From Tannockella kyphosi (GTDB taxonomy: Bacteria > Bacillota_I > Bacilli_A > Erysipelotrichales > Coprobacillaceae), in the NCBI RefSeq assembly GCF_021054785.1, contig NZ_CP088239.1, forward strand, positions 2,010,001 through 2,042,000: a stretch of DNA of 32,000 nucleotides, written 5' to 3'. The notes beneath the pieces were generated by a model. It was not told the DNA's origin and searched no databases. It saw nothing but the letters and a program-made list of their open reading frames with translations. The position numbers were made by a program, and so were the translations under genes. Numbering within the stretch: position 1 is the first letter of the stretch; each line of letters opens with the position of its first letter. Positions 10,557 to 32,000 of this stretch are shown piece by piece.

Positions 10557-10645
10557 AACAATTCCTCCTTTACGCATTTAGCTTATCATATTTTTGTTTT
10601 TATTTCTTCTTTTTTGTTTAACAGGTTACTTTTTTAGTCTAAGAA

Positions 10646-10675
10646 GTAAAAAAGGATATCTAAAATAGATATCCT
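10646..10675 (-). terminator. Intrinsic terminator after the Clp ATPase gene
   Basis: Minus strand AGGATATCTA-TTT-TAGATATCCT followed by TTTTTT; the stem overlaps the TAG stop. Confidence 0.75.
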
Positions 10676-12677
10676 ATTGATAAGTAAGTACTTCTTTTTG
10701 TATTAAATATTGTTGTAATTGTCTTAGTGCTCCTCTTGCTCCTAGATGAATTTGATAGTTATTGAGCAGGTTTTCTAGTTCTTTTGATGATAATTCAAAA
10801 GCACAATTGTTTTGTAAAATTGTTAAGATTGCATCTTTTGATAAGTCAAAGAATTGAAAAGTATAGTCAATTCGATTGATAAATTCATCACTAAAATAGT
10901 GATAAATATTATCTTGTTTCTTTGTTTTCTTAAAACCTAAACCATTATTTTGTTGGAATATGTTTGCAGTCATAATAATCAAACAGTCATGAAAATAGAT
11001 TTTTCTCTTTTGGTTATCTTCTAGATAACCTTCATCTAATACTTGTAGAAATAGGTGTAAGACATCAGGATGGGCTTTTTCTATTTCATCTAATAAGATA
11101 ATTGATTTTTGATTTGTTGTCAGCTTTTCTAAAAACAAACTAGATTTTTCATATCCTATATATCCTGGTGGAGATCCTAATATTTTTTGTAGCGAAGTTG
11201 GGTCTTTGTATTCAGACATATCTAATCGAATAATTGGTTTATTCATGAATATGCTTAGTTGTTTTACTAATTCTGTTTTTCCAACACCTGTTCTACCGGT
11301 AAATAAGTATACTCCTTGTGGTTTGTTTCTTTGTTTTTTAGGATATGCTAGATGATTAATAAACGTATCAATAATAGAATCTTGCCCAATTACTTTCTTT
11401 TTTAATGATTCTTTTAGGGCAGGATAATCGTATTCTTGATCTATCTTTATTTTTGTATACTCTTCGATTGTTTGTTTTAAGATATCTTTGGTTACTGTTT
11501 TTGCTTGTAAGAATTTTGTTTTTACACAAGCTAAATCTAATATATCAATTGCTTTATCTGGAAAAGTTCTGTTTTTCATATAACGTGTTACTGTTTCTAA
11601 TAGATAGTCTAAACAATCATCTGGTAATAAGATACCATGATATTGTTCATAATAGGCTTTATTTTGTAAGAGAATTTGTTTTGTTTCTTCACGAGTGTTT
11701 TCTTGTAACATTACAATACTAAAGCGACGATTCATTGCTTGTACAGGTTCAAAGTATTGGTAATACTCACTTGTTGTAGTGGCACCTATAATGGTGATAT
11801 CTTTTCTAGCAATATATGGTTTTAATATATTAGAGGCATCGATAGCACCTTCTGCTCCTCCTGCTCCTATCATAGTATGAATTTCATCAATAAATAGAAC
11901 AACATTATCTAATCCTTTTACCTTATCAATTATTTTCTTTAGTTTCTCTTCAAATTCTCCTCGATATTTTGTTCCTGATACAACACCAGATAAGTTTAAT
12001 TCATAAATTAATGTTTTTTGTAAGCTTGGTATTACATTCTTTTCATTAATCATCATTGCTAGTTTTTCAACTAATGCGGATTTTCCAACACCTGCTTGTC
12101 CTATAATTAAAGCATTGCTTTTCTCTTTTTTAGAAAGTATCATACATAATTGCTCTATTTCTTTTTCTCTTCCTACTATTTCTTTTTTGTTTTCTTTCAT
12201 TCTTTTGTTTAGATTAATTAAGGTTGGTATTTGATCTAGTTTTGATTCTAAGTCACTATTTTCTTTCATTTCAAAAATAATTTCTTCTATATCTACCTTA
12301 TATTTCTTTAATAGCTCCATTGCAACACTTTCTCTAGACTCTAATAACGCTAGTGATAAAATATTGATTGATACTTTATCACTTGCTGTTTCTTTTACTA
12401 ATTGTATTGCTTTTTCTAATATGTCTTGTACTATTTCGCTATATTCCATATAAAAAGGTTGATCATCACTTCGTCCAAATAAACGAATAATATCATCCTC
12501 TATTTTTTTATCATCTACATCGTACTTTTGTAATGCATTTGTTAATTTTGCATCTGTCATTTTTAATATTGCAAGCAATAAGTGTTCACTTCCAACACTA
12601 GGATGTCCAAAGTCAAAGGCAATGCTTTCGCCTATTACTATTGCTTTTTGAGACTGTTCATCAAATTTTGTTAACAT
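10674..12677 (-). CDS. clpC: ATP-dependent Clp protease ATP-binding subunit, compact ClpC/ClpA-like class I AAA+ (two AAA modules)
   Basis: Clp_N repeat (GHPSVGSEHLLLAILK). Walker A in D1 GQAGVGKSAL and Walker B FIDEIH. Walker A in D2 GRTGVGKTEL and Walker B LLDEIEKAH. ClpP-docking-type tripeptide LGF (NNGLGFKK). At 667 aa it is clearly shorter than typical ClpC. Confidence 0.9.
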   Translation of the reverse strand: MLTKFDEQSQKAIVIGESIAFDFGHPSVGSEHLLLAILKMTDAKLTNALQKYDVDDKKIEDDIIRLFGRSDDQPFYMEYSEIVQDILEKAIQLVKETASDKVSINILSLALLESRESVAMELLKKYKVDIEEIIFEMKENSDLESKLDQIPTLINLNKRMKENKKEIVGREKEIEQLCMILSKKEKSNALIIGQAGVGKSALVEKLAMMINEKNVIPSLQKTLIYELNLSGVVSGTKYRGEFEEKLKKIIDKVKGLDNVVLFIDEIHTMIGAGGAEGAIDASNILKPYIARKDITIIGATTTSEYYQYFEPVQAMNRRFSIVMLQENTREETKQILLQNKAYYEQYHGILLPDDCLDYLLETVTRYMKNRTFPDKAIDILDLACVKTKFLQAKTVTKDILKQTIEEYTKIKIDQEYDYPALKESLKKKVIGQDSIIDTFINHLAYPKKQRNKPQGVYLFTGRTGVGKTELVKQLSIFMNKPIIRLDMSEYKDPTSLQKILGSPPGYIGYEKSSLFLEKLTTNQKSIILLDEIEKAHPDVLHLFLQVLDEGYLEDNQKRKIYFHDCLIIMTANIFQQNNGLGFKKTKKQDNIYHYFSDEFINRIDYTFQFFDLSKDAILTILQNNCAFELSSKELENLLNNYQIHLGARGALRQLQQYLIQKEVLTYQ

Positions 12678-12756
12678 AGTACACCTCTTTCCTTTCTAAT
12701 ATATGTATTACCTATTTAAATTATTAACAATGCTTTTGGTTTTATGCTTTTTTTCA

Positions 12757-12783
12757 AAATAAAAAGTTAGATTAGATCTAACT
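12757..12783 (-). terminator. Intrinsic terminator after the small secreted-protein gene
   Basis: Minus strand AGTTAGAT-CTA-ATCTAACT followed by TTTTTATTTT; the TAG stop lies inside the 5' arm. Confidence 0.65.
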
Positions 12784-13140
12784 AAACAAAGATAAAAACC
12801 ATGATTTCTTAACTACATCTTGACTACTACTACAATAGTTCAACTCTAAAGTACCTTGAATGCTTTTTCCATTTCCATCACCTTGAACAATCAAATACTC
12901 CCCATTATAAAAACTAGCATCATATTCATTTGTATGATCAGCACAAACTTGATATAAATCATCTACTCCTTTTGACCAATCTATATAATCTGCCAACAAT
13001 TGATTTTTAGTTTGATAAGCCTTATCAATATCTTCTTGATTATTACTTGCTGCTACAATCGTATAAGTTGGAGATTCACTCCCTGCATCTATCGTTAGCA
13101 TATTCATTATTATAAAACATATTACAATATATTTTCTCAT
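12778..13140 (-). CDS. Small secreted/membrane-anchored protein of unknown function (weak SpoIIR-like motifs)
   Basis: Start trimmed to the ATG at 13140 (MRKYIVICFIIMNMLTIDAG..., GAGGTGAA Shine-Dalgarno). The N-terminus is a signal-peptide-like hydrophobic segment. I recognise no confident family. Confidence 0.6.
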   Translation of the reverse strand: MRKYIVICFIIMNMLTIDAGSESPTYTIVAASNNQEDIDKAYQTKNQLLADYIDWSKGVDDLYQVCADHTNEYDASFYNGEYLIVQGDGNGKSIQGTLELNYCSSSQDVVKKSWFLSLFS

Positions 13141-13206
13141 TCTATTCACCTCAAGTTCATTTTTCACCATTATAATTATTTTATACATATAAAGAGGAGA
13201 ATTTTT

Positions 13207-13881
13207 ATGGGAAATAGTTATGAGGTGTCGTTATCTGACTTAATGTTAGATGAAGCAGTGTTTTCTTCTATTAATGAATTTGCACAAATTCAACAAATAT
13301 ATAGTGCAGCTATTAAAGAGATTAAAACAAAGCTAGAAATATTAGATGATGAGTTTGCAGTACGTTATGATTATAATCCAATTCATCATATGGATTATCG
13401 TTTAAAGAAACCTAGAAGTATTATTAATAAGTGTCGTAAAAATAATATTCCTGTTAATGCGGATGCGATTCAAAAGAATTTATTTGATATAGCAGGTATT
13501 CGTGTTATTTGTAATTATGTGGATGATATTTATTTAGTAGCTAATTTATTATCAAAACAAGATGATGTTACACTTCTTGTTAAAAAGGATTATATTAAAA
13601 ACCCTAAACCTAGTGGTTATCGTAGTTTACATCTTGTTTTAGAAATACCAATATTCTTAGCAGATGAAACAAAAATGGTTCCTGTAGAAATACAAATTCG
13701 TACAATCGCAATGGATTTTTGGGCAAGTCTAGAACATCATATGAAATACAAAACAGATGCTAGTGTCCCTGATGGTGTTCGTTTAGAGCTTACAGAGTGT
13801 GCTAATTCGATTAGTAAACTAGATCATAAAATGCAGGGTATTCATAATGAACTAACAAAACTATCAAAAAAGGATGACTAA
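13207..13881 (+). CDS. relQ: Small alarmone synthetase / GTP pyrophosphokinase (RelQ/RelP, YjbM/YwaC family)
   Basis: Single RelA_SpoT synthetase domain: DIAGIRVICNYVDDIY, GYRSLHLVLEIP, VEIQIRTIAMDFWASLEH. There is no hydrolase domain. Confidence 0.9.
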   Translation: MGNSYEVSLSDLMLDEAVFSSINEFAQIQQIYSAAIKEIKTKLEILDDEFAVRYDYNPIHHMDYRLKKPRSIINKCRKNNIPVNADAIQKNLFDIAGIRVICNYVDDIYLVANLLSKQDDVTLLVKKDYIKNPKPSGYRSLHLVLEIPIFLADETKMVPVEIQIRTIAMDFWASLEHHMKYKTDASVPDGVRLELTECANSISKLDHKMQGIHNELTKLSKKDD

Positions 13882-13900
13882 TTGTTATCCTTTTGTTTTT
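13865..13900. terminator. Bidirectional terminator shared by convergent relQ and pnuC
   Basis: AAAAA-AGGATGAC-TAATT-GTTATCCT-TTTTGTTTTT (8-bp stem including one G.U pair). The stop codons of both genes lie in or at the loop. Confidence 0.6.
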
Positions 13901-14567
13901 CTTTCATTTTTTTCCAATTATAATAAGCATATAAATCATTTACTAAAAATACACAAAAACATAAAACCATGGTTAGATAAGTACTATTTTGTATGGTTGC
14001 AAGCAACCATAATATAATTAATATTATATCATTGAATGCATAGGCAATTGCATAATAATGACTACGCAAATAAGTTAACCCGACTGCCATAAAACTAGTA
14101 AAAATAGACAACACACTAACGATTAAATTTTGTGTATTAAAATATTTTAAAACAAAATAAAATAGAATCGTTACTATCATTGTCAAAAAACATAAACATA
14201 GAAACTTTGGTTTTGTTAGATTGGCTACTTCAACTTCATCTATTGATCCTTGATAAGGATTTTTCAACCATTCTATTGTTGCCAGTAATGCCATAGGTCC
14301 TGTCATACAAAGATATGTCAACATTTCGCCATAATATCCAAATTGATAAGATATATATCCATACAATATACTAAACACAACCGTTATTATTTGTCCTAAT
14401 ACATTGCCTCTTGCTAAATAAAGCAATCCAGTAATTCCTAATAATGTTGTAAAAAGTGATAAATAATGAATATTTCCATGAAAGATATTAACACTTAAAA
14501 TAATAGTTATCGATAGTATCCATAATCTCATTTCTATTTTATTAAAACAAAATATCATCTTTTTCAT
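13878..14567 (-). CDS. pnuC: PnuC-family nicotinamide riboside/NMN transporter (probable)
   Basis: 229 aa with about 7 TM helices. The segment ARGNVLGQIITVVFSILYGYISYQFGYYGEM resembles the conserved PnuC core, and a W-rich C-terminus is present. Call made from memory of the family; no search was run. Confidence 0.6.
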   Translation of the reverse strand: MKKMIFCFNKIEMRLWILSITIILSVNIFHGNIHYLSLFTTLLGITGLLYLARGNVLGQIITVVFSILYGYISYQFGYYGEMLTYLCMTGPMALLATIEWLKNPYQGSIDEVEVANLTKPKFLCLCFLTMIVTILFYFVLKYFNTQNLIVSVLSIFTSFMAVGLTYLRSHYYAIAYAFNDIILIILWLLATIQNSTYLTMVLCFCVFLVNDLYAYYNWKKMKEKQKDNN

Positions 14568-14580
14568 ATCTTTCTCCCAA

Positions 14581-14612
14581 AAAAAGAAGCATTGATCATG
14601 CTTCTTTTTAAA
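14581..14612. terminator. Intrinsic terminator ending the lysine-biosynthesis operon (hairpin also flanked by an A-run)
   Basis: Minus strand AAAAAGAAGCAT-GATCA-ATGCTTCTTTTTTT, located between the GNAT stop and the pnuC Shine-Dalgarno. Confidence 0.7.
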
Positions 14613-15023
14613 CTATATTTCTTTTAACATGGTAACATGAGGACAATGTTCATCTAAGTATTCTTCGCCTTTTTGATGATACCCCATCTTTTGATAAAAT
14701 ATTTTTGCTTGTACCTGTGCCGATAGTTTTATTTTATGATAACCTTCTTTTTTTATTTCTTTTTCTAAATACTCCATCATTTGTTTGCCTAAATGAGATT
14801 TACGATATGCTTTGGCTACTGCTATTCTACCTATAATTGCATAGTCATCTTCGTAATAGATTCTTCCTACCACAACAGGTAGTTCTTCTTCCATAAACAC
14901 AACATGTTTACAACTAGCATCTCTTGATTCAAATTCATCTTGAAATCCTTGTTCTTTTACAAATACTTCTTCTCTAAGAATTTTGGCTTGTTCAAATAAA
15001 CCAATTTGACATATTACTTCCAT
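14613..15023 (-). CDS. GNAT-family N-acetyltransferase (YjcF/ElaA-like)
   Basis: EEVFVKEQGF..., RIAVAKAYRKSHLGKQMM (acetyl-CoA binding Q/R-x-x-G-x-G/A-like region). The start is uncertain: the ATG at 15023 (1 nt after the lysA stop) is preferred, and 15035 or 15056 are possible. None has a strong Shine-Dalgarno. Confidence 0.8.
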   Translation of the reverse strand: MEVICQIGLFEQAKILREEVFVKEQGFQDEFESRDASCKHVVFMEEELPVVVGRIYYEDDYAIIGRIAVAKAYRKSHLGKQMMEYLEKEIKKEGYHKIKLSAQVQAKIFYQKMGYHQKGEEYLDEHCPHVTMLKEI

Positions 15024-15024
15024 G

Positions 15025-16320
15025 TTATTGTTCATCAAATAATAATAGATCATCAAAAGTTTGACGACGCACTACTACTTTGCTTTCTCCTTCATGGGTA
15101 AAGACAACTGCTGGTTTTGGTAACTGATTGTAATTAGAAGCCATTGAATAATGATAAGCTCCTGTTGTAAACATTGCCAAAATATCTCCTGGTTGTGGAT
15201 CACTAAGGGCAACATCTTTACATAGAATATCCCCTGACTCACAGTTTTTCCCTGCTACTGTTACAACTGTATCCTTTTCTTTACTTGCTTTATTAACAAC
15301 TAGTGCTTCATATTTTGCATCATATAAGCTAACACGAATGTTATCTGTCATACCACCATCTACACTAATATATTTACGAACACCTGGAATATCTTTATAA
15401 GCTCCAACTGTATATAAAGTAACCCCTGCATTCCCAACTACATACCTACCTGGTTCAATTAGTACCATTGGAACATCAAAGCCTTTTGCTTTGAATCCTT
15501 TGGTAATAATATCCATGATTGTATCTGTAATAAGATCAAAATCTAATGGTTTATCTTCTTTGGTGTAGGCTATTCCATAGCCTCCACCAGCATTTAATTT
15601 CTTAATGACAATTCCAAATGTATCATATATCTCATAACTTAATTGTACAAATTTATGCATTGCATCAACATAGGCTTGAATATCTTCTATTTGAGAACCA
15701 ATATGACAATGTATTCCAACAAACTCAATATGAGAACAATCTAATACTGCTTGAATTGCTTTTAAATAAGTTTCATCATGACTACTAAAACCAAACTTTG
15801 TATCTGTTGCACCTGTTTGAATATATTCATGATTCCCTGCTGTAACTCCTGGAGTGACACGCATTGTTGCTTGTATTATGACATTGTATTGTAATGCATA
15901 TTTTTGGATAAGTTCTATTTCATAGAAGTTATCTACAACAAAGTTTTCTACCCCATTTTTAATAGCGTATTCTATTTCACTAGGTAATTTATTATTTCCG
16001 TGGAAATAAATTTTTTTCTTGTTGAAACCAGCTTTTAATGCTATTGACATTTCTCCTGATGATACTACATCAATACCTATATCATATTGTTTTGCTAGTT
16101 TGTAAATAGCTAAACAACTAAATGATTTAGATGCAAATAATGGCAAAGTATTTGGATACTTTGTCATCATTTCTTGTAATTTATCAAGTCTTGAACAAAT
16201 ATGTCCTTTTGACATTACAAATAAAGGTGTACCATATTCCTTTACCAAATTTATTGATGATACTTCATCAATGAAAAGGTCATCTCCTTTTACTTCTATA
16301 AAATCTCTTTGTAAAACCAT
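15025..16320 (-). CDS. lysA: Diaminopimelate decarboxylase
   Basis: Orn/DAP/Arg decarboxylase fold-III PLP enzyme with EPGRYVVGNAG and GAYHYSMASNYN motifs. Start trimmed to the ATG at 16320 (MVLQRDF, GGGAGAG Shine-Dalgarno); the ORF-track start overlaps dapB. Confidence 0.95.
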   Translation of the reverse strand: MVLQRDFIEVKGDDLFIDEVSSINLVKEYGTPLFVMSKGHICSRLDKLQEMMTKYPNTLPLFASKSFSCLAIYKLAKQYDIGIDVVSSGEMSIALKAGFNKKKIYFHGNNKLPSEIEYAIKNGVENFVVDNFYEIELIQKYALQYNVIIQATMRVTPGVTAGNHEYIQTGATDTKFGFSSHDETYLKAIQAVLDCSHIEFVGIHCHIGSQIEDIQAYVDAMHKFVQLSYEIYDTFGIVIKKLNAGGGYGIAYTKEDKPLDFDLITDTIMDIITKGFKAKGFDVPMVLIEPGRYVVGNAGVTLYTVGAYKDIPGVRKYISVDGGMTDNIRVSLYDAKYEALVVNKASKEKDTVVTVAGKNCESGDILCKDVALSDPQPGDILAMFTTGAYHYSMASNYNQLPKPAVVFTHEGESKVVVRRQTFDDLLLFDEQ

Positions 16321-16328
16321 TGCTCTCC

Positions 16329-17072
16329 CTAATATAAAGTTTTCAAAGTATATAAACCGCACTCTTTATTTTCTAAAGATTTCGCTGCACTAATTGCTCC
16401 TTGTACAAAGACTTCTTTCGATAACGCATTATGAGTTACTTCAATTACTTCGTCCTTTCCAGCAAATACGATTGTGTGTTCTCCAAAGATAGTACCTCCA
16501 CGGATTGCTTGAATTCCCACTTCTTCTTTTTTTCTTTTTTCTCTTGTTTGACTACGATCATAAACAGCTCTCGTATTTGTTACTTCTTCTTCAATAACAT
16601 CATAGATTAATTTAGCTGTACCACTAGGTGCATCTATTTTTTGGTTATGATGCTTTTCAATAATTTCAATATCAAAACCACTATCATATAATTCTTTTGA
16701 TACTGTTCTTAATATTTTTGTAACCATTTGAATTCCTAATGATGTGTTATAAGATTGGAAAATAGCAATTTCTTGACTAGCTTCTTCTATTTTATTTAAT
16801 TGATCTTGATTGTATCCTGTTGTTGCAAGAACTAACTTTGTTTTATTTTTTAAACCATATTCTAATACCATATCTAAATTACTAGGGTGTGAAAAATCAA
16901 TAATAACATCTGCTACTTCATAACACCCTTGTAAGTTTTCATACATTGGTTCTGGTGCTGGTTCATCAAAAAAATTAGATACTACTGCTAATAAGTCCAT
17001 GTCTTCTTGTTCACGAACTTTTGCGGCAACCTTCTTCCCCATAAAACCATAACCTACAACAATCGCTTTCAT
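16329..17072 (-). CDS. dapB: 4-hydroxy-tetrahydrodipicolinate reductase
   Basis: MKAIVVGYGFMGK Rossmann N-terminus and the diagnostic EKHHNQKIDAPSGTA motif. Confidence 0.95.
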   Translation of the reverse strand: MKAIVVGYGFMGKKVAAKVREQEDMDLLAVVSNFFDEPAPEPMYENLQGCYEVADVIIDFSHPSNLDMVLEYGLKNKTKLVLATTGYNQDQLNKIEEASQEIAIFQSYNTSLGIQMVTKILRTVSKELYDSGFDIEIIEKHHNQKIDAPSGTAKLIYDVIEEEVTNTRAVYDRSQTREKRKKEEVGIQAIRGGTIFGEHTIVFAGKDEVIEVTHNALSKEVFVQGAISAAKSLENKECGLYTLKTLY

Positions 17073-17074
17073 TC

Positions 17075-17968
17075 TTAGTACCCTAATGCATCAAATGCAT
17101 CCATTGCTGCAAATAACGCTTCTCTTTTTGCTTGTGTTGTTGGTACTAATGGCATACGTAAAATATTTTTACAAATACCTTTTTTCGATAATGCTGCTTT
17201 GGCATTAATTGGATTTACATCACTAAATAATTGATCATTTAAGTCATCCATATCTAATGCCATTTTCTTTGCTTCTTCCATATTTCCATCTAATATATGT
17301 TGGCATAACATTTGTGTCTCTCTAGGATAAACATTAGAAACAACAGAAATAACTCCTTTTGCTCCTGAAGCCATCATTGGTAAAATAATATCATCATTTC
17401 CTGAATACACTACAAAATCTTCTATATCTCTCGTTTTTGTCATAATTTCTAAAGCATAAGATAAATTACCTGTAGCATCTTTAATACCAACAATATTTTT
17501 ATGTTTTGCAAGTTCTACTACTGTATCTACTTCAATTAACATTCCTGTACGACTTGGTACACAATATAAAATAATTGGAATATTTACACTATCAGCAATC
17601 ATTAAATAATGTTTTAATAAACCTTCTTTCGAAGTTTTATTATAGTAAGGAGTTACTACTAATAACCCATCTACTCCTAAAGACTCTACATATTTACTTT
17701 GATCAATTGCATGTTTTGTATCATTTGATCCAGTACCAGCAATTACTTTGCATTTCCCTTTTGCAACCTTAAGTGCTAATTTTAATAACTCATGTTCTTC
17801 CTCTACTACTAAAGTAGCTGGTTCTCCTGTCGTACCATTTACGATAATAGCTTTTACTCCACCCTCTAGATTACTTCTTACAAGCTTTTCATAAGCTCCA
17901 TAATCTACGCTAAAATCTTCATTCATTGGTGTAACTAATGCTGTCCCGCATCCTTCAAATAATGCCAT
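17075..17968 (-). CDS. dapA: 4-hydroxy-tetrahydrodipicolinate synthase
   Basis: GTALVTPM, VNGTTGE, YYNK motifs. Start trimmed to the ATG at 17968 (MALFEG, AAGGAGAAG Shine-Dalgarno). Confidence 0.95.
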   Translation of the reverse strand: MALFEGCGTALVTPMNEDFSVDYGAYEKLVRSNLEGGVKAIIVNGTTGEPATLVVEEEHELLKLALKVAKGKCKVIAGTGSNDTKHAIDQSKYVESLGVDGLLVVTPYYNKTSKEGLLKHYLMIADSVNIPIILYCVPSRTGMLIEVDTVVELAKHKNIVGIKDATGNLSYALEIMTKTRDIEDFVVYSGNDDIILPMMASGAKGVISVVSNVYPRETQMLCQHILDGNMEEAKKMALDMDDLNDQLFSDVNPINAKAALSKKGICKNILRMPLVPTTQAKREALFAAMDAFDALGY

Positions 17969-20460: not shown

Positions 20461-21696
20461 TTATAAATTTTCTTTTGCTACAGAAAGCATTAGTTTAATT
20501 CTATTTTCTTGATTTACTTTTGTAGCACCTGGATCATAATCAATTGCTACAATATTTGCTTTCGGGAATTGTTTCACAATTTTACGAACCATTCCTTTTC
20601 CAGCAATATGATTTGGTAAACATCCAAATGGTTGAGCACATACGATATTTCCATATCCTGATTCTGCTAATTCTAACATTTCTGCTGTAAGTAACCATCC
20701 TTCACCCATTTTACACCCATAACCAATAACTGGTTCTACTAATTTTTTTAAGTGTTGATAAGTTCCAGGAGGCGTAAATCTTGTTCCTTGTAATGATTCT
20801 ATTAAATATGTTTCATATTTTGTAAGGAAGTTAAATAACTTTTTACAAACAATATCTTTTATCTTATTTCCACCATATAATTTAATATCTTCAATACGAT
20901 TATCTACTTTAAATAACATAAATCCCATTAATCCAGGAACCATTACTTCACAATCTTGTTCTTGTAAAAACTTTTCTAAATTATTATTTGCAAGAGGAGA
21001 ATATTTTACATAAATTTCTCCAACAATACCTACTTTTACTTTCTTTTCTTCTTTTATTTCTATTTCTTCAAAAGATAATGACATTTCTTTTAAGTATTTT
21101 TTCATTTCTTTTTGAGAATATCCTTTGTTTTGTTCAAATAACTCACTTATTTTTACAGTCCATTGTTCTAATAAAGTATCTGTTTGTCCTTTTTTTATTT
21201 CATAAGGTCTAACTTGGTTACTTAATAACATCAATAAGTCTCCATAAACAGCTGCTGCTACCATTCTTCTAATAAGCGGTAATGATAACTTAAAACCACT
21301 ATTCTTTTCTAAACCAGACATATTAATAGAAATAACTGGAATATCACCTAATCCTGCATTTCTTAATCCTTTTCTAAGTAAATGGATATAATTAGAAGCA
21401 CGACATCCACCTCCTGTTTGAGACATGATTAAAGCAGTGTGTTCTAAATCATAATCACCACTTTTTAATGCACTTATCATTTGACCACTAGTTAGTAATG
21501 CTGGATAGCAAGTATCATTATGAATATATTTTAATCCTTCATCAATGACACTTTGATCTGTATTCGTTAGTATTTCCATCGTATATCCATAACTAGTAAA
21601 TATTTTTTCTAATATTTTAAAATGAACATTCAACATATTTGGTACTAATATTTTATGTGTTTTCTTCATTTCTTTTGTGAATTCAACTCTATCCAT
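20461..21696 (-). CDS. Acyl-CoA dehydratase activase-related protein (DUF2229 / HgdAB-like module), uncharacterised
   Basis: About 411 aa. The pattern ILVPNMLNVHFKILEKIF... HNDTCYPALL ... GGGCRASNY ... CAQPFGCLPNH is typical of proteins encoded next to or fused with HgdC/BcrAD-type ATPases. Start trimmed to the ATG at 21696 (GGAGG Shine-Dalgarno; 1 nt after the upstream stop). Confidence 0.75.
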   Translation of the reverse strand: MDRVEFTKEMKKTHKILVPNMLNVHFKILEKIFTSYGYTMEILTNTDQSVIDEGLKYIHNDTCYPALLTSGQMISALKSGDYDLEHTALIMSQTGGGCRASNYIHLLRKGLRNAGLGDIPVISINMSGLEKNSGFKLSLPLIRRMVAAAVYGDLLMLLSNQVRPYEIKKGQTDTLLEQWTVKISELFEQNKGYSQKEMKKYLKEMSLSFEEIEIKEEKKVKVGIVGEIYVKYSPLANNNLEKFLQEQDCEVMVPGLMGFMLFKVDNRIEDIKLYGGNKIKDIVCKKLFNFLTKYETYLIESLQGTRFTPPGTYQHLKKLVEPVIGYGCKMGEGWLLTAEMLELAESGYGNIVCAQPFGCLPNHIAGKGMVRKIVKQFPKANIVAIDYDPGATKVNQENRIKLMLSVAKENL

Positions 21697-21697
21697 A

Positions 21698-24604
21698 CTA
21701 ATCCTCCAATCCTGTTGCTGCAAACAAGCTACGTAATCTTATTTTTACAGCCCCTAAGTTCGTAATTTCATCTATTTTTATTTGTGTATAGATTTTGTTT
21801 TTCTCTTCTAAAATATGACGTACTTCATCTGTTGTAATCGCATCTACACCACATCCAAAGGATACTAATTGTACTAAATTTATCATTGGATCATTGCTTT
21901 GTGCAATATATTTAGCACTAGAATATAATCTAGCATGATAAGTCCATTGATTTAAGACTTCTGTTTTTACATAATCTACTTTATGGCTTATCGCATCTTC
22001 ACATATTAGGACTGCTCCACAATCACATACTAAATTATCTATTCCATGATTGATTTCAGAATCTAAATGATAAGGTCTTCCTGCTAAGACAATAATTGGT
22101 AAATTATTGTCTTTTGCAATTGCTAAATATTTTTCCCCTTTATCTCTAATCTTTTGCATATAATGATCATATTCTTGATATGCTTTTTTACATGCTTTTT
22201 CTATTTCTTTTTTATTAAAAGGACCAAATTCTCTTTCTAATATAAGTTGTATTTTTTTAGGGAAATCTTTTTTACGATGAATACCTATATAATCATGAAT
22301 ATATTTTATATCATCTATTGCACTAATATTTGCTTTTACTACCTCTGGATAATAAGCAACTACCGGACAATTATAATGATTATCACTTTTTCCTTCTTTT
22401 AAATTATAAGACATACAAGGATAGAATATAGCATCTACTTGTTGTTCTAATAATACTTCCATATGTCCATGAATAAGCTTTGCTGGATAACAAACAGTAT
22501 CCGAAGGAATGGTATGTTGTCCTTTTACATAAACATCACGGGTAGATTCCGGTGATACATATACTCCAAAACCTAATTCTTTAAAGAACGTATGCCAGAA
22601 AGGTAGTAACTCAAACATATTTAAAGCGAAAGGAAGTCCTATTGTTTCTCTTGTTCCACTACAATTTTCATATTTTCTTAAATATCTTTTTTTATCATCA
22701 AACATATTATATTTTTCTTTTTTACTTTTTAACTGTAATGGCTTTTCACAACGATTACCACCTATAAAAATATTATTGTTTGCAAACGTATTCACTGTTA
22801 ATTTACAATGATTTGTACAACGATTACAGGTAACTGATTTTACAACATGTTTAAATTCTTGTAATTGTTCTAATGTCAAAATATTACTTTTTTCAATATT
22901 CTTTTCTTTTATATATAAAGCAGCTCCATAAGCTCCCATTAATCCTGAAAGCAAAGGTCTAGTAACCTCAATATTTAATTCCTTTTCAAAAGCACGTAAT
23001 ACTGCATTATTTAAGAAAGTTCCCCCTTGTACTACAATATGTTTCCCTAAAGATTCCGCATTAGCAACACGTATTACTTTATACAATGCATTTTTAACAA
23101 CACTAATCGCAAGCCCAGCTGAAATATCTTCTACACTCGCCCCATCTTTTTGTGCCTGTTTAACTGAAGAATTCATAAAAACAGTACAACGAGATCCTAA
23201 ATCTACTGGTCTTGGAGCAAATAATCCTGATTTTGAAAAATCTGCAATATCTTGATTCAATGCTCCTGCAAAAGTTTGTAAAAATGAACCACATCCAGAA
23301 GAACAAGCTTCATTTAAAAAGATATTATCAATTGCTTGATTTCTTATTTTAAAACATTTAATATCTTGACCACCTATATCAATAATAAAATCTACTTCTG
23401 GATTATATTTTTTTGCAGCTCTAAAATGAGCCATTGTTTCTACTAACCCAGCATCTCCTTGAAAAGCATTCTTTATTATTTCTTCTCCATATCCTGTTGT
23501 AGCAAGACCACCTATTTCAATTCCTGGAAATCTTGTATATAAATCAACTAAAAAATCTTTTACTAATAATACTGGTGATCCTTTATTTGACATATAAGCA
23601 GTATGTACTAATTTATCATCTTCACCTAAAACAACTGCTTTTAATGTGGTAGACCCAGCATCTATTCCTATATATGCTTTTCCTACTAAAGGAAAAGTTT
23701 CTATTTCTTGATCAATTCCATGACGATCACTAAATTCTTTATATTCTTTTTCATCTTTAAATAATGGTGCTAAACTACTATATCCACCACTTGTTTTATA
23801 ATTACTAATATCTTCTATTAATTGTTTCATATCAAAAACTTTTTCATCTTGATATAAAGCAGTCCCCATTGATACAAAGTATAATGAATTTTCAGGAAAT
23901 ATTCCCTTTAAATGCAATGCTTCATCAAATGTTTCTCTTAATTTAGAAAAGAAAGTAAGTGGTCCACCTAAATAAACAACATTCCCTTTTATTTCTCTAC
24001 CTTGAGCTAATCCTGCAATTGTTTGATTCGCTACCGCTAAAAAGATACTTGCTGCAATATCTTCCTTACGAGCACCTTGATTTAATAATGGTTGGATATC
24101 ACTTTTTGCAAATACACCACATCTTGATGCAATACTATATAATTTTTGACTATCTTTGGCATATTCGTTCATTTCTAAAGGGGTAATGTTTAGTAGCGTA
24201 GCCATTTGATCAATAAATGCACCAGTCCCACCAGCACAACTACCATTCATTCGCACTTCCATTACTCCATCTAAAAATAAAATCTTTGCATCTTCTCCAC
24301 CTAATTCTACTACACAATCACTTTCTGGTAATAATGTCTTTACTGCAAGTCTTGTAGCATATACTTCTTGTACAAAAGGAATATCCATTGTATTCGCAAA
24401 ACCCATTCCTGCTGAACCAGATATTTTAATGCTTACTTCTTTTTGATCAGGAAATTTGTTTGATATTTCTTCTAACATTTCTTTTGTCTTTGTTATTATT
24501 TGTGCAAAATGCCTTTGATAATTGCTATAAATAATTTCATTGTTTTCATTTAACACAACACACTTAAGTGTTGTAGACCCCACATCTAACCCTATTCTAA
24601 ACAT
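21698..24604 (-). CDS. CoA-substrate-specific enzyme activase-like protein: two BcrAD/BadFG (HgdC-type) ATPase domains fused to a DUF2229/HgdAB-like module
   Basis: Two ASKHA ATPase starts (FRIGLDVGSTTLKCVV and AYIGIDAGSTTLKAVV). Cys-rich linker CNRCTNHCKLTV...GGNRCEKP. The C-terminal third resembles the downstream gene product (DTVCYPAKL..., VSFGCGVDA). Start trimmed to the ATG at 24604 (GGGGAG Shine-Dalgarno). Confidence 0.85.
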   Translation of the reverse strand: MFRIGLDVGSTTLKCVVLNENNEIIYSNYQRHFAQIITKTKEMLEEISNKFPDQKEVSIKISGSAGMGFANTMDIPFVQEVYATRLAVKTLLPESDCVVELGGEDAKILFLDGVMEVRMNGSCAGGTGAFIDQMATLLNITPLEMNEYAKDSQKLYSIASRCGVFAKSDIQPLLNQGARKEDIAASIFLAVANQTIAGLAQGREIKGNVVYLGGPLTFFSKLRETFDEALHLKGIFPENSLYFVSMGTALYQDEKVFDMKQLIEDISNYKTSGGYSSLAPLFKDEKEYKEFSDRHGIDQEIETFPLVGKAYIGIDAGSTTLKAVVLGEDDKLVHTAYMSNKGSPVLLVKDFLVDLYTRFPGIEIGGLATTGYGEEIIKNAFQGDAGLVETMAHFRAAKKYNPEVDFIIDIGGQDIKCFKIRNQAIDNIFLNEACSSGCGSFLQTFAGALNQDIADFSKSGLFAPRPVDLGSRCTVFMNSSVKQAQKDGASVEDISAGLAISVVKNALYKVIRVANAESLGKHIVVQGGTFLNNAVLRAFEKELNIEVTRPLLSGLMGAYGAALYIKEKNIEKSNILTLEQLQEFKHVVKSVTCNRCTNHCKLTVNTFANNNIFIGGNRCEKPLQLKSKKEKYNMFDDKKRYLRKYENCSGTRETIGLPFALNMFELLPFWHTFFKELGFGVYVSPESTRDVYVKGQHTIPSDTVCYPAKLIHGHMEVLLEQQVDAIFYPCMSYNLKEGKSDNHYNCPVVAYYPEVVKANISAIDDIKYIHDYIGIHRKKDFPKKIQLILEREFGPFNKKEIEKACKKAYQEYDHYMQKIRDKGEKYLAIAKDNNLPIIVLAGRPYHLDSEINHGIDNLVCDCGAVLICEDAISHKVDYVKTEVLNQWTYHARLYSSAKYIAQSNDPMINLVQLVSFGCGVDAITTDEVRHILEEKNKIYTQIKIDEITNLGAVKIRLRSLFAATGLED

Positions 24605-24683
24605 AAGTTCTCCCCTCTGCATGCTTAATACTATATTATTAACACCTTTTACTTATTAATGCAATACTTTCATTTTCTTTACC

Positions 24684-27636: not shown

Positions 27637-27671
27637 GGGGCATTCATTGTTTAGATGAATACTCCTTTTTA
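27637..27671. terminator. Bidirectional terminator between the ArsC-family gene and the helicase gene
   Basis: GGGGCATTCAT-TGTTTAG-ATGAATACTCC-TTTTT (11-bp stem with one mismatch and one G.U). The complementary strand also ends in TTTTATGTTTAT. Confidence 0.6.
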
Positions 27672-27706: not shown

Positions 27707-30385
27707 CTATTCCAAAGCACCCTTTACTCGCTTGCCTGTGATACTTCTTTCTTGTTTATTAGAAAAAGCTTTCTTTCTTCCTTTTAACAAGATTTTACGT
27801 CCTTCACTATTTCTTGTATAAATAACTTCATATTTTCCAATATAAGGAGTCATTGATTTTGCAAACATTTCAGCATCCTCTTTGCGTTTTGAAAAGATAT
27901 CTGGTATTGCAAAATATCCATAGACATTATTTTTATGTTTTTTAGAATATAAAATGTATCGTTGATTATCTATTGTTTCAAAAAATTCTGCTACACTTTT
28001 AGAAAACAATGCTTGATCTTGTCCTGTTCCACCTTTTAAATAAATATTTGATGCTAGAGGTGTTGAAGTAACTTCTACTCGATTGATAGAGGACTCAAAT
28101 AAACTTCTTTGTTCTAATGCTTTTCTTATGCCTTTACCAATACTTCCTAAAGAACGAACTGGACTTCCTAAAGAAATAAACTGCTTTATTACTAACAAAT
28201 AATAAATAAGTGCCATAAAAGCGGTAATACCAACTAATAAATAACAAAACTCTTTAGTGACTGAAAATGTAGAAAGTAGGACATTAAATTCAATATTTAT
28301 TAAAATAGTATAACCTACTGAAAATAAAAATACTCTTATAAAATCTACTAAAAAAAATGAAGTTAATACCTTGTTTTTTACAGATACCTCTTGGTTTATT
28401 TCGATATCATTTGCTATTGTTAGAGCTTCTTGCCATCTTTTTAACAATACTTCTCGTTTAGAAGATCGTTCTAACATTTCATTATTAAAACGTTTTGTTT
28501 GTCCTTTTGTTTGATTGAACTTCGTTACATCCATGATTCGTTCTACTCCCGTTTCTATCACGTTTAAGGAGCGGTGTAACCCTAAGAAGTGTTCCATCCT
28601 TCTTACCAATGTTTCCATATCATCATTTGCTACAAAATCTTCTACATTTTGTTGTATTTTTTCAATACAAGCAAGATGCCATATATTACTTGTTTTATTT
28701 GGATCTCTTACATAGCTTCTAATTGCTCTACCACGCATTTGATTACTTAACATAAAACTTCCTACAAAACTTGCTAGAATTAAAGAATTGACACAAGGTG
28801 AATCCCATCCTTCTCCTAATAATGCCTTTGTTCCAATTAATACCTCTACTTCCCCTTCCTCAAAAAGTTTAGTCACTATCTCTGTTAAACAATGACGATC
28901 CCCTCGAATCTTCACCTCATTGTAACTACTTTCCCCTAGTTTCCCTAATGAATTAAATGATATTTTATCTTTTTTATCAACTAATTCTAGTAATCTTTCT
29001 TTGGCTTGATTTGGGATAATTACAATACTTCCACATAATACTCCTAATTTTACATTTGTTTTTCTTTGTTCATTTTCTCTTCTTAACAATTCAAATATTG
29101 GGATAACACCCAATGCATGTACTTCTAATTCTTTATTACCAATTGCTTGTAAATAATCTTTTTTTATATAATCACATAAAATTAATAGCCTTAGTTTTTC
29201 CTTCATACTACTATATTCATAGAAACAAATATCTTTTATACTTTCACACTTTCCTATTGAACGAACAAGTCCTTTTTTTATACTTGGTTTTGATACTAGT
29301 GTAACTTTGCGATTTTCAATTAGACCATATGTTTTTAATTTTGCTATATATTTTTCTTGTTCTTCTTTTGTTATAGAAAAGGATTCTGTATCTTGATAAA
29401 GCATGTTTTGTAATAGTATTTCTAACCATTTTTCTGACATCTTTTCTAAATGTGTATATCCTAATAATTTTCTATAATTTCTAGGTACTTTATGATTCTT
29501 ATGGTTTATATAAATAAGTAAAGAGGATAAGTACGCAGGATTATCAAGTATTTTATCCATATCTACCGTATTTTTAAATATATCATGAGATACTATTATT
29601 TTTTCTAACTGTTCATCTGCCATGAACTCTTCCATCAACGCTTTTCTAGCATTCTCGAAGTCTTTTAGTTTTGCTTGTTCTTCTTTGGTTGGATAGTTAA
29701 TATAAACATAATCTTGATGTGGACATAAGTTGCCATCTTTCACTAGTTCTGGTACCGTTATTTCTTCATCTATTTGACCACACATTTTCATATAACGTAA
29801 CCACATTTCTGGGGATGAATCATATGGGGGTGTTGCTGTTAGTGCAATAGTATAACTTAGTTTTGTTTGTTTATTAAAATCTTCTAGTGATTTCCACCAT
29901 TCATTTCTTAGATGATGACATTCATCCAAACAAATCGTTTTTATTTTATTTTTACTAATTTCTGCTAATAAGTCAAATCCTTCAAAATCAACTTCTTCTT
30001 GATAAGAAATATCTTCATCACATTCTTCAATCAATGTTCCTTTGTATTGTTTCATTGCACTATGAATTGCTTGATAGGAAGTTACTGTAATTAACTTCAT
30101 ATCTCTTAGATTTTGTGATAACACATCCGATGATACGACACCTTCTTTTAAAAATGCCTCCTCCATACGATGAATCCATTGTTCACGAATTGTAATAGTT
30201 GGTACTAATACAATACAAGGTTCATTCATTAAACGTATTAATTCTATTCCTAAGGTTGTTTTCCCAGAACCAGGAGCTGCAACTATATGAACTTTCCCAT
30301 CTCTTTTATAATCATAGTACTTATCTAAAACACGTTGTTGGTATTTTCTCCACGTTCCTTTAAAACATAATATGTTTTGATACAT
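27707..30385 (-). CDS. Superfamily-2 (DEAD/DEAH, ResIII-like) helicase with an internal transmembrane hairpin and an unassigned C-terminal domain
   Basis: 892 aa. Motif I AAPGSGKT, motif II DECHH, motif III TATP, motif VI QMRGRAIR. Residues about 673-739 (nt about 28169..28369) are hydrophobic: SFFLVDFIRVFLFSVGYTILINI and FCYLLVGITAFMALIYYLLVI. A 153-aa basic tail follows, in which I recognise no motif. GGGAG Shine-Dalgarno, 17 nt after the upstream gene. Confidence 0.85.
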   Translation of the reverse strand: MYQNILCFKGTWRKYQQRVLDKYYDYKRDGKVHIVAAPGSGKTTLGIELIRLMNEPCIVLVPTITIREQWIHRMEEAFLKEGVVSSDVLSQNLRDMKLITVTSYQAIHSAMKQYKGTLIEECDEDISYQEEVDFEGFDLLAEISKNKIKTICLDECHHLRNEWWKSLEDFNKQTKLSYTIALTATPPYDSSPEMWLRYMKMCGQIDEEITVPELVKDGNLCPHQDYVYINYPTKEEQAKLKDFENARKALMEEFMADEQLEKIIVSHDIFKNTVDMDKILDNPAYLSSLLIYINHKNHKVPRNYRKLLGYTHLEKMSEKWLEILLQNMLYQDTESFSITKEEQEKYIAKLKTYGLIENRKVTLVSKPSIKKGLVRSIGKCESIKDICFYEYSSMKEKLRLLILCDYIKKDYLQAIGNKELEVHALGVIPIFELLRRENEQRKTNVKLGVLCGSIVIIPNQAKERLLELVDKKDKISFNSLGKLGESSYNEVKIRGDRHCLTEIVTKLFEEGEVEVLIGTKALLGEGWDSPCVNSLILASFVGSFMLSNQMRGRAIRSYVRDPNKTSNIWHLACIEKIQQNVEDFVANDDMETLVRRMEHFLGLHRSLNVIETGVERIMDVTKFNQTKGQTKRFNNEMLERSSKREVLLKRWQEALTIANDIEINQEVSVKNKVLTSFFLVDFIRVFLFSVGYTILINIEFNVLLSTFSVTKEFCYLLVGITAFMALIYYLLVIKQFISLGSPVRSLGSIGKGIRKALEQRSLFESSINRVEVTSTPLASNIYLKGGTGQDQALFSKSVAEFFETIDNQRYILYSKKHKNNVYGYFAIPDIFSKRKEDAEMFAKSMTPYIGKYEVIYTRNSEGRKILLKGRKKAFSNKQERSITGKRVKGALE

Positions 30386-30402
30386 TTTATTTCTCCCTGT
30401 CT

Positions 30403-31665
30403 TTACTCATATATAAGTATCATGGTAAAACTATTCATCTCATCATTAGAAATCCATATATAAGAAGAAGCTCCTGTTATGTTTGCTTGATTCACTACTT
30501 TTGATATTAAATCATCATTATTAATATTCCATATTATTTGATTATATATCTCACTATCACTTGTTTTCCAAACATAATAATTATCTACTACTGGATTTTT
30601 AAAGATTTCTACTAACCTTGACTCACTATAAGTATCTACTACTAATCCTTCTACTACAAAGAAATTATATTGTGTGGCTGTTACTTCTGGTAATTCAAAA
30701 TAATCATCTGCATAATGATTACTAGCAATATCTTCTTCTGTCACTAATAGGTAATCATAGTTTATTTGTTCTGCTAATAAGGATGCATTTTCATCACTTG
30801 AATAATTAGGATCTCCCCATGTTACATCCACATAATAATATTCATCCTCAATAAGAACTAAATTCCATCCATGTCCTTCCTCACTCTCAAAAAAACTCGT
30901 AGTACCGCTTATGAAAGTACAAGAAATACCCATCTCATTTAATATATATTGCATTGCTCTAGCATATCCCGCACATACTGCCTCTTGTTTAACAAGCGCC
31001 CCATAGCTTGTTTGATCATAATCACTAAATTCATATTCAACATGAAATACAATATATTCATAAACAGCTTTTACTTTTTCATAATCTGTTGCATCCCCAT
31101 CTATTCCACTGATTGCTTCTTGGACTACTTGTTTTGCTTCTTCTTTTTGTATTTCTATTTCTTCTGTGTCATAACGATAGTCAAATACTATCGTACAATT
31201 TGTAGTTGAGAAAAAATCACTACGCTTAACACTTATAGTTTCAACATATTCAGCTTCATAAAAATCAGAACGAATACAATTCCATATTTTTGTAATATCA
31301 TCTTCTGTTATATCCTTTGTTTTAAAAGAAATATTTGGTTCTAAATTAATAATAGCTTCTGCCATTAATAAATATATTTTTTGTTCATCTTGACTTAACG
31401 TACTATATGCCCAATATTCCAAATCTTCTTCAAACACTTCTTCTTTTTCTTCAAATAAAGAATAATCTAATGATTCTATTGATTGATAACTAGTTTGCAT
31501 TTCTTCAATCCATGTATTCATATCAAATTCATTATCTAATAGATTACTTGCAGTGACTCCTATTACTGCTATCACTGTCATAATACAAATAATTTTGATT
31601 ATAAACATAATAAACTTTGCAATAATCACGCTTATTTTCTTTTTTTCTCTTCTCTCTGGTTCCAT
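30403..31665 (-). CDS. Membrane-anchored transglutaminase-like (papain-fold Cys-His-Asp) domain protein
   Basis: N-terminal basic stretch plus a single TM (ISVIIAKFIMFIIKIICIMTVIAVIGV). Transglutaminase-core triad context: QEAVCAGYARAMQYIL (Cys), EGHGWNLV (His), YYYVDVTWGD (Asp). GGGGAG Shine-Dalgarno. Confidence 0.8.
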   Translation of the reverse strand: MEPERREKKKISVIIAKFIMFIIKIICIMTVIAVIGVTASNLLDNEFDMNTWIEEMQTSYQSIESLDYSLFEEKEEVFEEDLEYWAYSTLSQDEQKIYLLMAEAIINLEPNISFKTKDITEDDITKIWNCIRSDFYEAEYVETISVKRSDFFSTTNCTIVFDYRYDTEEIEIQKEEAKQVVQEAISGIDGDATDYEKVKAVYEYIVFHVEYEFSDYDQTSYGALVKQEAVCAGYARAMQYILNEMGISCTFISGTTSFFESEEGHGWNLVLIEDEYYYVDVTWGDPNYSSDENASLLAEQINYDYLLVTEEDIASNHYADDYFELPEVTATQYNFFVVEGLVVDTYSESRLVEIFKNPVVDNYYVWKTSDSEIYNQIIWNINNDDLISKVVNQANITGASSYIWISNDEMNSFTMILIYE

Positions 31666-31689
31666 ATATATCTCCCCTTTTATATTTTT

Positions 31690-31718
31690 ATTATCTATCA
31701 GATCCTAATGTTTGTAAA
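31690..31718 (-). promoter_or_regulatory. Candidate promoter of the transglutaminase-like/helicase operon
   Basis: Minus strand TTTACA - 17 nt - GATAAT, about 25 nt upstream of the ATG at 31665 and directly downstream of a terminator. Confidence 0.45.
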
Positions 31719-31723
31719 TAGCA

Positions 31724-31750
31724 ATAATAAAAAAGTAGATGCTATCTACT
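31724..31750 (-). terminator. Intrinsic terminator after the small membrane-protein gene
   Basis: Minus strand AGTAGAT-AGC-ATCTACT followed by TTTTTATTATT. The TAG stop spans the stem/loop junction. An A-run on the other side makes it formally bidirectional. Confidence 0.65.
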
Positions 31751-31975
31751 TTTTTTATCTGCTATATAAATTAAAATTGTTCCTGCTAATTGTAAAACAA
31801 TGCTTTGCACAAATACTGCTACTAACAACAGTAAAACAATAGACGTAATATCTACTAATTCTCCTGTATTAATGGCTGCTAATATTATATAAACAGGTAA
31901 TAAAACAAGGCTTACTTTTTTTAAAAACTTTGATCCTCTTATAAAGTGATTTCCTATATAATGATATCTTTCCAT
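31742..31975 (-). CDS. Small hydrophobic protein (2 predicted TM helices), unknown function
   Basis: ORF with two hydrophobic stretches (VSLVLLPVYIILAAI; IVLLLLVAVFVQSIVLQLAGTILIYI). The ATG at 31975 is preferred over the TTG at 31987. There is no clear Shine-Dalgarno, so coding status is only moderately supported. Confidence 0.4.
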   Translation of the reverse strand: MERYHYIGNHFIRGSKFLKKVSLVLLPVYIILAAINTGELVDITSIVLLLLVAVFVQSIVLQLAGTILIYIADKKSR

Positions 31976-32000
31976 CTTATTTACCAATACAAAAGCGTTT

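Follow-up and report, generated by a model that had tools for sequence, protein, structure and literature searches.

A stand-alone SF2 helicase family with a predicted membrane hairpin, and its probably fortuitous adjacency to a transglutaminase-fold gene in Tannockella kyphosi

The 32,000-nucleotide (nt) stretch of the Tannockella kyphosi chromosome analysed here (contig NZ_CP088239.1, positions 2,010,001 to 2,042,000; hereafter the window, to which all coordinates refer unless another locus is named) carries two adjacent minus-strand genes that had been proposed, in an original prediction made from the letters alone, to constitute a functional system. Gene 1 (30403..31665), as defined by its open reading frame (ORF) and domain matches, encodes a 420-amino acid (aa) transglutaminase (TGase)-fold protein predicted to be membrane-anchored in an N-in/C-out orientation, while gene 2 (27707..30385), as defined by its ORF, Pfam matches and an AlphaFold model, encodes an 892-aa superfamily II (SF2) helicase that is likewise predicted to be anchored in the membrane. 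Comparative analysis of both families led to a different view: the two genes are very probably independent of one another, their adjacency being a matter of chance, and the helicase belongs to a family whose members stand alone. The considerable confidence placed in the independence of the genes and in the stand-alone nature of the family extends to no particular biological role.

Gene order around the helicase and the transglutaminase

Relatives of the helicase were sought in 185,579 species-level genomes; at least 588 loci resulted, of which the best 80 were kept, each with up to 8 kilobases of flanking sequence on either side. These 80 loci, which include representatives of uncultured Erysipelotrichaceae/Erysipelotrichales, Lachnospiraceae, Roseburia, Agathobacter, Saccharofermentans, mitis-group streptococci, Granulicatella and Carnobacterium, yielded a single instance of a TGase-domain gene adjoining the helicase (locus L068; tblastn with the window TGase, E 1e-6). 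In that goat-rectum Lachnospiraceae metagenome-assembled genome, the gene located 175 nt upstream of the helicase (L068 5096-7804) encodes a 902-aa protein with a C-terminal Transglut_core domain and an architecture unlike that of gene 1. An equivalent phmmer search with the window TGase gave no matches among the 1,007 neighbouring ORFs of the 80 loci and, given that a sequence search matched approximately 4,200 TGase-domain homologues of gene 1, a single adjacency among the 80 loci seems no more than chance could produce.

The close relatives of each protein gave a corresponding result. The closest relative of the helicase (68% identity) has a divergent ArsR/ArsP pair and an acetyltransferase gene on its flanks, with no TGase, and a relative with 57% identity has an alpha/beta-hydrolase gene upstream; in the equivalent position, other close relatives have genes for phosphofructokinase, a haloacid dehalogenase-type (HAD) hydrolase, adenylosuccinate lyase, a PucR regulator, DegV or YdjC. 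The reverse test, conducted with three TGase homologues located on long contigs, revealed no helicase nearby, the relevant contexts being prepilin peptidase plus carbamoyl-phosphate synthase genes, or a position between RF3 and Asp23/NusB. A second T. kyphosi strain is the only other place where the pair was encountered, and the adjacency is thus lineage-specific. A lack of synteny between the two families in other genomes had been named beforehand in the original prediction as an observation that would speak against it, and that lack of synteny is what was found; the claim of a functional system did not survive the comparison.

The likely sites of action of the two proteins point in the same direction. 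The consensus of the TGase family carries a lipobox (L-x-G-C) at the position of the gene 1 transmembrane anchor, which implies that the enzyme works outside the membrane, whereas an ATP-dependent helicase with no signal peptide would work inside it, and hence on the opposite side; a caution concerning topology that accompanied the original prediction was well placed.

The proposal itself was of an anti-phage or DNA-entry surveillance system in which the membrane helicase would serve as a nucleic acid-sensing motor and the Cys-His-Asp enzyme as its effector. The co-orientation of the genes, their 17-nt spacing, the single promoter candidate and the hairpins on both sides are in its favour, as are the preservation of the pair in the second strain and the arrangement at L068. 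Set against these are the absence of TGase-helicase synteny from 79 of the 80 genomes, the closest relatives included, the helicase-free surroundings of the TGase homologues, and the opposite compartments predicted from the lipobox consensus; moreover, PADLOC returned nothing for the TGase and a weak generic match for the helicase, and the surroundings of the locus are oriC-proximal, of housekeeping character and uniform in GC content. Taken together, these data render a two-gene system the least probable of the explanations considered here, with only the slenderest of chances, and it can be dropped, thereby sparing follow-up effort. Co-transcription of the two genes in T. kyphosi is plausible, and probably occurs, and is no evidence for a shared function.

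Helicase core, hairpin and C-terminal domain

Structurally, the product of gene 2 falls into the XPB/Hef/RIG-I class and is an intact SF2 ATPase; a T. kyphosi protein annotated as 'DEAD/DEAH box helicase family protein' matches it with 100% identity. Both Pfam domains scored above threshold (ResIII, 74.4 bits against a cutoff of 22.5, residues 11-187; Helicase_C, 24.6 bits against a cutoff of 23.5), and SF2 motifs I, II (DECH), III, V (EGWDSP) and VI (QMRGRAIR) are invariant in 50 of 50 homologues, in an alignment with a mean column identity of 62%, results that uphold the initial assignment to the ResIII-type SF2 helicases. The ResIII match and the invariant columns define RecA-like domain 1 (residues 1-232; 29690..30385, minus strand, as for all gene 2 features), with its Q-like, I (GSGKT), Ia, II (DECH) and III (TAT) motifs; RecA-like domain 2 (residues 398-575; 28661..29194), similarly defined by Helicase_C and invariant columns, contains motifs V (LGEGWDSP) and VI (QMRGRAIR). 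The full-length AlphaFold model, built on the homologue alignment (mean predicted local distance difference test score, pLDDT, 81), places an all-helical insertion (residues 234-397; 29195..29686) between the two RecA domains and a helical connector (residues 588-660; 28406..28624) between the second of these and the membrane hairpin. The insertion had no Pfam match at E<=10, and no nuclease or other effector domain was recognised anywhere in the protein by Pfam, PDB fold or PDB profile searches.

Four cysteines (C152, C156, C202 and C221) and three histidines (H157, H158 and H223), located within and just past motif II (CLDECHH ... MCG ... LCPHQDY), are also invariant in 50 of 50 sequences, and as such might constitute a candidate metal or Fe-S site.

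Of solved proteins, those closest to the helicase in sequence are the archaeal XPB/Rad25 enzymes, although the profile match to AfXPB (E 3e-10) covers only around 100 residues of RecA domain 1, and the score against the NCBIfam XPB equivalog NF045503 (34 bits, residues 12-111 aligned) compares with a cutoff of 610. XPB and Hef share with the helicase a DExH-type motif II, an EGxDxP motif V and a helical domain that separates the RecA domains, and gave the best target-normalised TM-scores with the helicase model (0.56 for XPB-Bax1-DNA and 0.51 for Hef). However, neither possesses the membrane hairpin or the C-terminal domain of the helicase family, and no Bax1-like nuclease partner or damage-recognition domain was detected.

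Ranked by Foldseek, the best matches of the model were RIG-I, MDA5, LGP2, DRH-1, Dicer, XPB and Hef, with E-values from 1e-13 to 1e-10; the first of these (RIG-I, 5e3h, E 9.5e-14) was the top match, and the alignments with this receptor group extended over some 700 columns. Each of the fold-matched proteins is an SF2 translocase in which a helical domain separates or interrupts the RecA domains, and the domain order of the model is also that of RIG-I, MDA5, Dicer, Hef and XPB. With the RIG-I-like receptors in particular, the helicase as modelled appears to have in common the succession Hel1, helical insertion, Hel2, helical connector and basic C-terminal domain, and its motif II is DECH(H), as in RIG-I and MDA5. 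Nevertheless, the relevant identities are a mere 13-16% with TM-scores of 0.3-0.4, XPB and Hef match equally well, and the helicase differs from these receptors in being bacterial, membrane-anchored by prediction, and devoid of CARD domains. In RIG-I-like receptors, moreover, RNA ends are recognised by a zinc-binding regulatory domain at the C-terminus; the C-terminal domain of the helicase has no PDB match, and hence none to the RIG-I regulatory domain. TM-scores of 0.3-0.56 combined with identities of 13-16% serve to establish structural class and no orthology; judged from the model, the likeness to RIG-I is one of architecture, and no sign of family membership.

Two features set the family apart, both of which had been noted at the outset. 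The first, a predicted two-helix hydrophobic hairpin (residues 676-740; 28166..28360) that would constitute an N-in/C-in anchor, is indicated by hydropathy and by the AlphaFold model in agreement, the two Kyte-Doolittle peaks (1.97 and 2.33) coinciding with the two modelled helices (residues 676-706 and 711-740). The corresponding stretch is hydrophobic in every aligned homologue while its actual sequence varies, a pattern typical of a segment that faces lipid. Of 78 relatives, 48 passed a strict two-peak Kyte-Doolittle test, the remainder having weaker or shorter helices. The flank following helix 2 has a net charge of +4 over residues 736-760 and, together with the net charge of +14 on the C-terminal domain (helicase residues 740-892), fits a cytoplasmic location for both helicase termini. 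SF2 motors anchored in the membrane by a hydrophobic segment of their own appear to be uncommon.

The second feature is a basic C-terminal domain (residues 742-892; 27710..28162) for which AlphaFold predicts a family-specific alpha/beta fold, with a pLDDT of 91 when the domain was modelled alone. Searches conducted with this domain returned nothing of significance from the PDB by Foldseek (best E 1.2, with no match at E<1), from the BFVD viral structures (best E 0.18), from Pfam (nothing at E<=10), or from PDB sequence profiles (best E 0.7). A profile of the domain, run against a library clustered at 50% identity, matched 1,042 representative proteins; among the full-length matches listed (~850-950 aa) it is always C-terminal, and those shorter matches that were inspected look like truncated gene calls. 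Although the family is abundant in databases, its combination of hairpin and orphan C-terminal domain is a new variant of SF2 architecture.

Certain considerations weigh against this picture of an independent, membrane-anchored nucleic acid motor. L068 stands as one independent case of a TGase-domain gene next to the helicase, and in T. kyphosi the 17-nt spacing, shared promoter candidate and flanking hairpins fit a real operon, such that a lineage-specific functional link is possible. Membrane insertion of the helicase is predicted from hydropathy and AlphaFold helices only, and certain members have only a short hairpin, rich in Gly and Ala: in the Lachnobacterium/Agathobacter loci L065 and L064, for example, it spans residues ~695-735 with ~15+15 residues (e.g. 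LLYAGAGAAAGVALAFTPAGWLGGAVALASGVYGV), a composition that suggests re-entrant or monotopic insertion as opposed to two full transmembrane spans. Literature searches found no biochemical or genetic study of any family member. The one apparent literature match, for 'transmembrane helicase', proved to be a misprint for 'helices'.

Distribution and possible roles of the helicase family

The helicase gene is stand-alone in every genome examined. In 45 non-streptococcal loci, the 95 immediate neighbours match 111 Pfam families, headed by TrkA (7), DegV (5) and CxxCxxCC (5), with no dominant Pfam partner and no defence enrichment; almost none of these 95 proteins gave a match in a PADLOC scan, and all-against-all clustering of neighbours recovered lineage-local synteny only. 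A conserved partner was rejected accordingly. The family spans Bacillota, Bacteroidota and Alphaproteobacteria, under database names that are only generic, such as 'superfamily II DNA or RNA helicase', and identities within it do not track taxonomy, Lachnospiraceae and 'Faecalibacterium' proteins being closer to that of Tannockella than are several from Erysipelotrichaceae. Full-length relatives with 27-35% identity are present among ordinary genes on megaplasmids of Paenibacillus, Chondrinema (Bacteroidota) and Tritonibacter (Alphaproteobacteria). Carriage by phages or plasmids was nevertheless rejected, since plasmid-borne copies were found only on megaplasmids or chromids, and the family is almost absent from phage collections (three full-length relatives in 2.9 million IMG/VR contigs, and two short faecal fragments in a phage database).

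In-frame premature stops interrupt the gene in four of the 80 loci (L040, L052, L053 and L063, at codons 390, 507, 192 and 332, respectively). One of these loci, L052, is from an isolate genome (Streptococcus mitis SK578), which makes assembly error unlikely for that particular stop, and the presence of such alleles, an isolate genome included, indicates that the gene is dispensable.

Sporadic association with NUDIX hydrolases was encountered on three occasions: as a fusion to the helicase N-terminus in cluster P0351 (three members of 1071-1119 aa), as a gene just upstream in one Lachnospiraceae contig (L096 5131-5676), and as a gene two places downstream in Paenibacillus (L093 11719-12495), beside NAD-salvage genes. 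Three NUDIX queries gave no matches among the 1,007 neighbouring ORFs, and the association was rejected as sporadic.

In 23 mitis-group Streptococcus genomes, the helicase occupies a fixed site downstream of FtsX, a major facilitator superfamily (MFS) transporter and a divergent DedA/VTT gene. Directly after the helicase is a variable segment (loci L035-L078, ~10640-17500 in locus coordinates), the genes of which differ between species and comprise type I restriction-modification (R-M) genes with two HsdR families, a KAP NTPase, AbiH, or EcoRI-type and Dcm-type type II methyltransferases; in 14 of the 23 loci, a type I restriction enzyme is encoded no more than three genes from the helicase. 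The helicase is the conserved edge of this hotspot, and is outside its variable content.

The divergent DedA/VTT membrane-protein gene is itself conserved in the mitis group (L035 7235-7855 and others), and in Paenibacillus (L093 4068-6359) two DedA/VTT genes lie just upstream of the helicase along with undecaprenyl-diphosphatase and glycosyltransferase genes; the proximity may be a coincidence.

Such a setting invites the proposition that the helicase alone acts as a single-gene defence or foreign-DNA surveillance protein, tethered to the membrane and translocating on injected or transforming DNA so as to block or mark it, with the C-terminal domain as sensor or effector. Its fixed streptococcal site directly upstream of the variable R-M/KAP/AbiH region, the patchy distribution across phyla with identities that run off taxonomy, the nonsense alleles in four of 80 loci and a domain order resembling that of RIG-I-like sensors are all compatible with this role, as are weak matches of RecA domain 1 to the defence helicases PbeA (3.1e-10, 37 bits, by PADLOC) and the DndFGH-type restriction helicase TIGR04095 (7e-8). 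The family also has Pfam family ResIII in common with HsdR/Res subunits, and the streptococcal helicase adjoins type I R-M loci. However, scores against defence helicase families are far below the relevant thresholds (32 bits against 600), no PADLOC model was matched beyond the generic helicase similarity represented by PbeA, no Pbe partner genes are present at the window locus, and the partner genes, nuclease and methyltransferase of these various systems were not detected there. The earlier statements that the locus matches no named defence system and is no R-M locus both hold: in PADLOC-DB v2 the TGase and the small upstream ORF have no match and the helicase only the partial one to PbeA, while the neighbours in the window are an ArsC-family gene, GFO/IDH/MocA and MgtE. 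Further points counting against surveillance are that the streptococcal helicase flanks the hotspot and forms no part of its variable content, that elsewhere it is surrounded by metabolic or housekeeping genes among which defence genes are not enriched, that conservation is high (the 62% mean column identity), and that the protein has no recognised effector or nuclease domain. On balance, surveillance by the helicase alone is judged unlikely, if well short of negligible.

A more specific form of this idea would make the helicase a membrane-tethered bacterial counterpart of the RIG-I/Hef class, namely a stand-alone DECH-box duplex translocase with an orphan basic C-terminal domain that reads, at the inner membrane face, some hallmark of nucleic acid entering the cell, for instance the ends of phage or transforming DNA or RNA. 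The probability attached to this is low, though if true the helicase would represent an as yet undescribed kind of single-protein sensor-effector, in which the TGase plays no part.

The presence of a membrane-located SF2 ATPase in naturally competent mitis-group streptococci likewise raises the notion of a DNA-uptake motor analogous to ComFA, pulling transforming DNA through a membrane channel. Competence control was rejected on finding no com-box (TACGAATA) in the upstream regions of 11 streptococcal loci, where there is an ordinary extended -10 promoter; moreover, the neighbour families listed include nothing of the ComFC or ComEC type, many of the taxa harbouring the family have no known competence, and the helicase is of the XPB/ResIII type, unlike the DEAD-box ComFA. 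A competence motor is accordingly regarded as very improbable.

Ranked slightly ahead of surveillance of incoming DNA, and put forward tentatively as an option with somewhat less than an even chance, is a dispensable, non-defence transaction of DNA or RNA at the membrane; the rest of the probability falls to other roles. Known members of the XPB/Hef/RIG-I class translocate on duplex nucleic acid. By analogy, the T. kyphosi protein would work without a partner, using ATP to translocate along duplex nucleic acid in the vicinity of the membrane, its two-helix hairpin holding it on the cytoplasmic face and its basic C-terminal domain perhaps serving as an additional nucleic acid-binding or regulatory module.

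Whatever its role, the family is a cleanly delimited group of SF2 helicases, abundant in gut and oral bacteria, with a predicted hairpin anchor and a confidently folded C-terminal domain that has no detectable relatives in structure or sequence. Its presence beside a defence hotspot in tractable, naturally competent mitis-group streptococci makes the function, be it defence, DNA uptake, repair or RNA metabolism at the membrane, directly accessible by knockouts, and renders it a reasonable target chiefly in those organisms, with no surprising mechanism indicated so far.

The transglutaminase-fold protein, local signals and chromosomal setting

The gene 1 ORF is identical to a T. kyphosi protein, and its Transglut_core match (PF01841; residues 189-280; 30826..31101, minus strand) scored 43.2 bits against a cutoff of 23, with the Cys-His-Asp triad (C231, H265 and D280) invariant in 30 of 30 aligned homologues. 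A single N-terminal transmembrane anchor (approximately residues 12-37; 31555..31632, minus strand; Kyte-Doolittle 19-mer values up to 2.87) follows a Lys/Arg-rich N-terminus, and takes the form of an uncleaved segment in place of the lipobox usual in the family. These features confirm the initial description of a single-pass membrane protein with a TGase/papain-fold Cys-His-Asp core and, as far as can be judged from sequence, gene 1 is a membrane-anchored member of a large TGase-fold family of gut Bacillota that consists mostly of lipoproteins. It aligns to PDB 9CRN chain A, a solved 'transglutaminase-like domain-containing protein' of the same family, at E 1.9e-14 (E 1.3e-55 with the family profile), a structure for which a literature search found no paper. 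A score of 111 bits against NF045980, the NCBIfam model of the MAG6410-family TGase-related lipoprotein, compares with an equivalog cutoff of 450, and gene 1 is thus no equivalog of the mycoplasma protein, kinship being by domain only. The enzyme may be a protease/amidase-type hydrolase or a cross-linking enzyme, in either case with a substrate at the cell surface.

The signals surrounding the two genes were largely as first described. Both ORFs were confirmed, at 420 and 892 aa on the minus strand with a 17-nt gap; the intergenic spacer (30386..30402, minus strand) includes the GGGAG Shine-Dalgarno sequence ahead of the helicase ATG, its length being matched in the second strain, and gene 1 has a Shine-Dalgarno sequence of its own, GGGGAG (31672..31677, minus strand), upstream of its first ATG. 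The sigma-70-like sequence TTTACA-17-GATAAT (31690..31718, minus strand), originally taken to be the promoter of the pair, is indeed the best-scoring site in the region (10/12), but promoter-like sites occur at chance level in this AT-rich DNA (29 found against 32.8 expected from shuffled sequence) and, with the count no higher than in shuffled sequence, it has the standing of a candidate only.

The terminators proposed on either side were both recovered as hairpins with adjoining T-runs. That between the convergent helicase and ArsC-family genes (27637..27671; -13.6 kcal/mol, z -4.7), for which none of 200 shuffles folded as well, is probably a bidirectional terminator; the other (31724..31750, minus strand; -10.3 kcal/mol, z -3.0) is probably the intrinsic terminator of a small upstream ORF, with the stop codon of which it overlaps. 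Both were missed by a stricter terminator scan because their stems are GC-poor or imperfect. The small ORF (31742-31987, minus strand), with two hydrophobic segments and a length of 77-81 aa, gave no Pfam, NCBIfam or PADLOC match and, as had been stated, is separated from the TGase gene by the latter hairpin. In the second strain it is annotated as 89 aa, a version that overlaps the end of mnmE.

The second T. kyphosi strain (contig L088) has a TGase 95% identical to that of the window and the same 17-nt spacing to the helicase. Its gene order, which runs dnaA, rpmH, rnpA, yidC, jag, mnmE, the 89-aa ORF, TGase, helicase, ArsC, GFO/IDH/MocA and MgtE, places the locus in the origin-proximal core of the chromosome, near oriC, and in no island. 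Consistent with this, GC content is uniform across the window at ~30% (26-36%), with no deviation at the TGase-helicase locus. The other large ORFs of the window are of a housekeeping or metabolic nature, and encode MgtE, a pair of CoA-enzyme activases, a histidine phosphatase, a LacI regulator, DapA, LysA, a Clp ATPase, phosphotransferase system (PTS) components, a GH38 mannosidase, an ArsC-family protein and a GFO/IDH/MocA oxidoreductase. The activase pair (20461-24622, minus strand) comprises adjacent genes for 974-aa and 420-aa proteins with BcrAD/BadFG ATPase and DUF2229 CoA-enzyme-activase domains, an arrangement that is ordinary for anaerobes and unrelated to the TGase-helicase finding.

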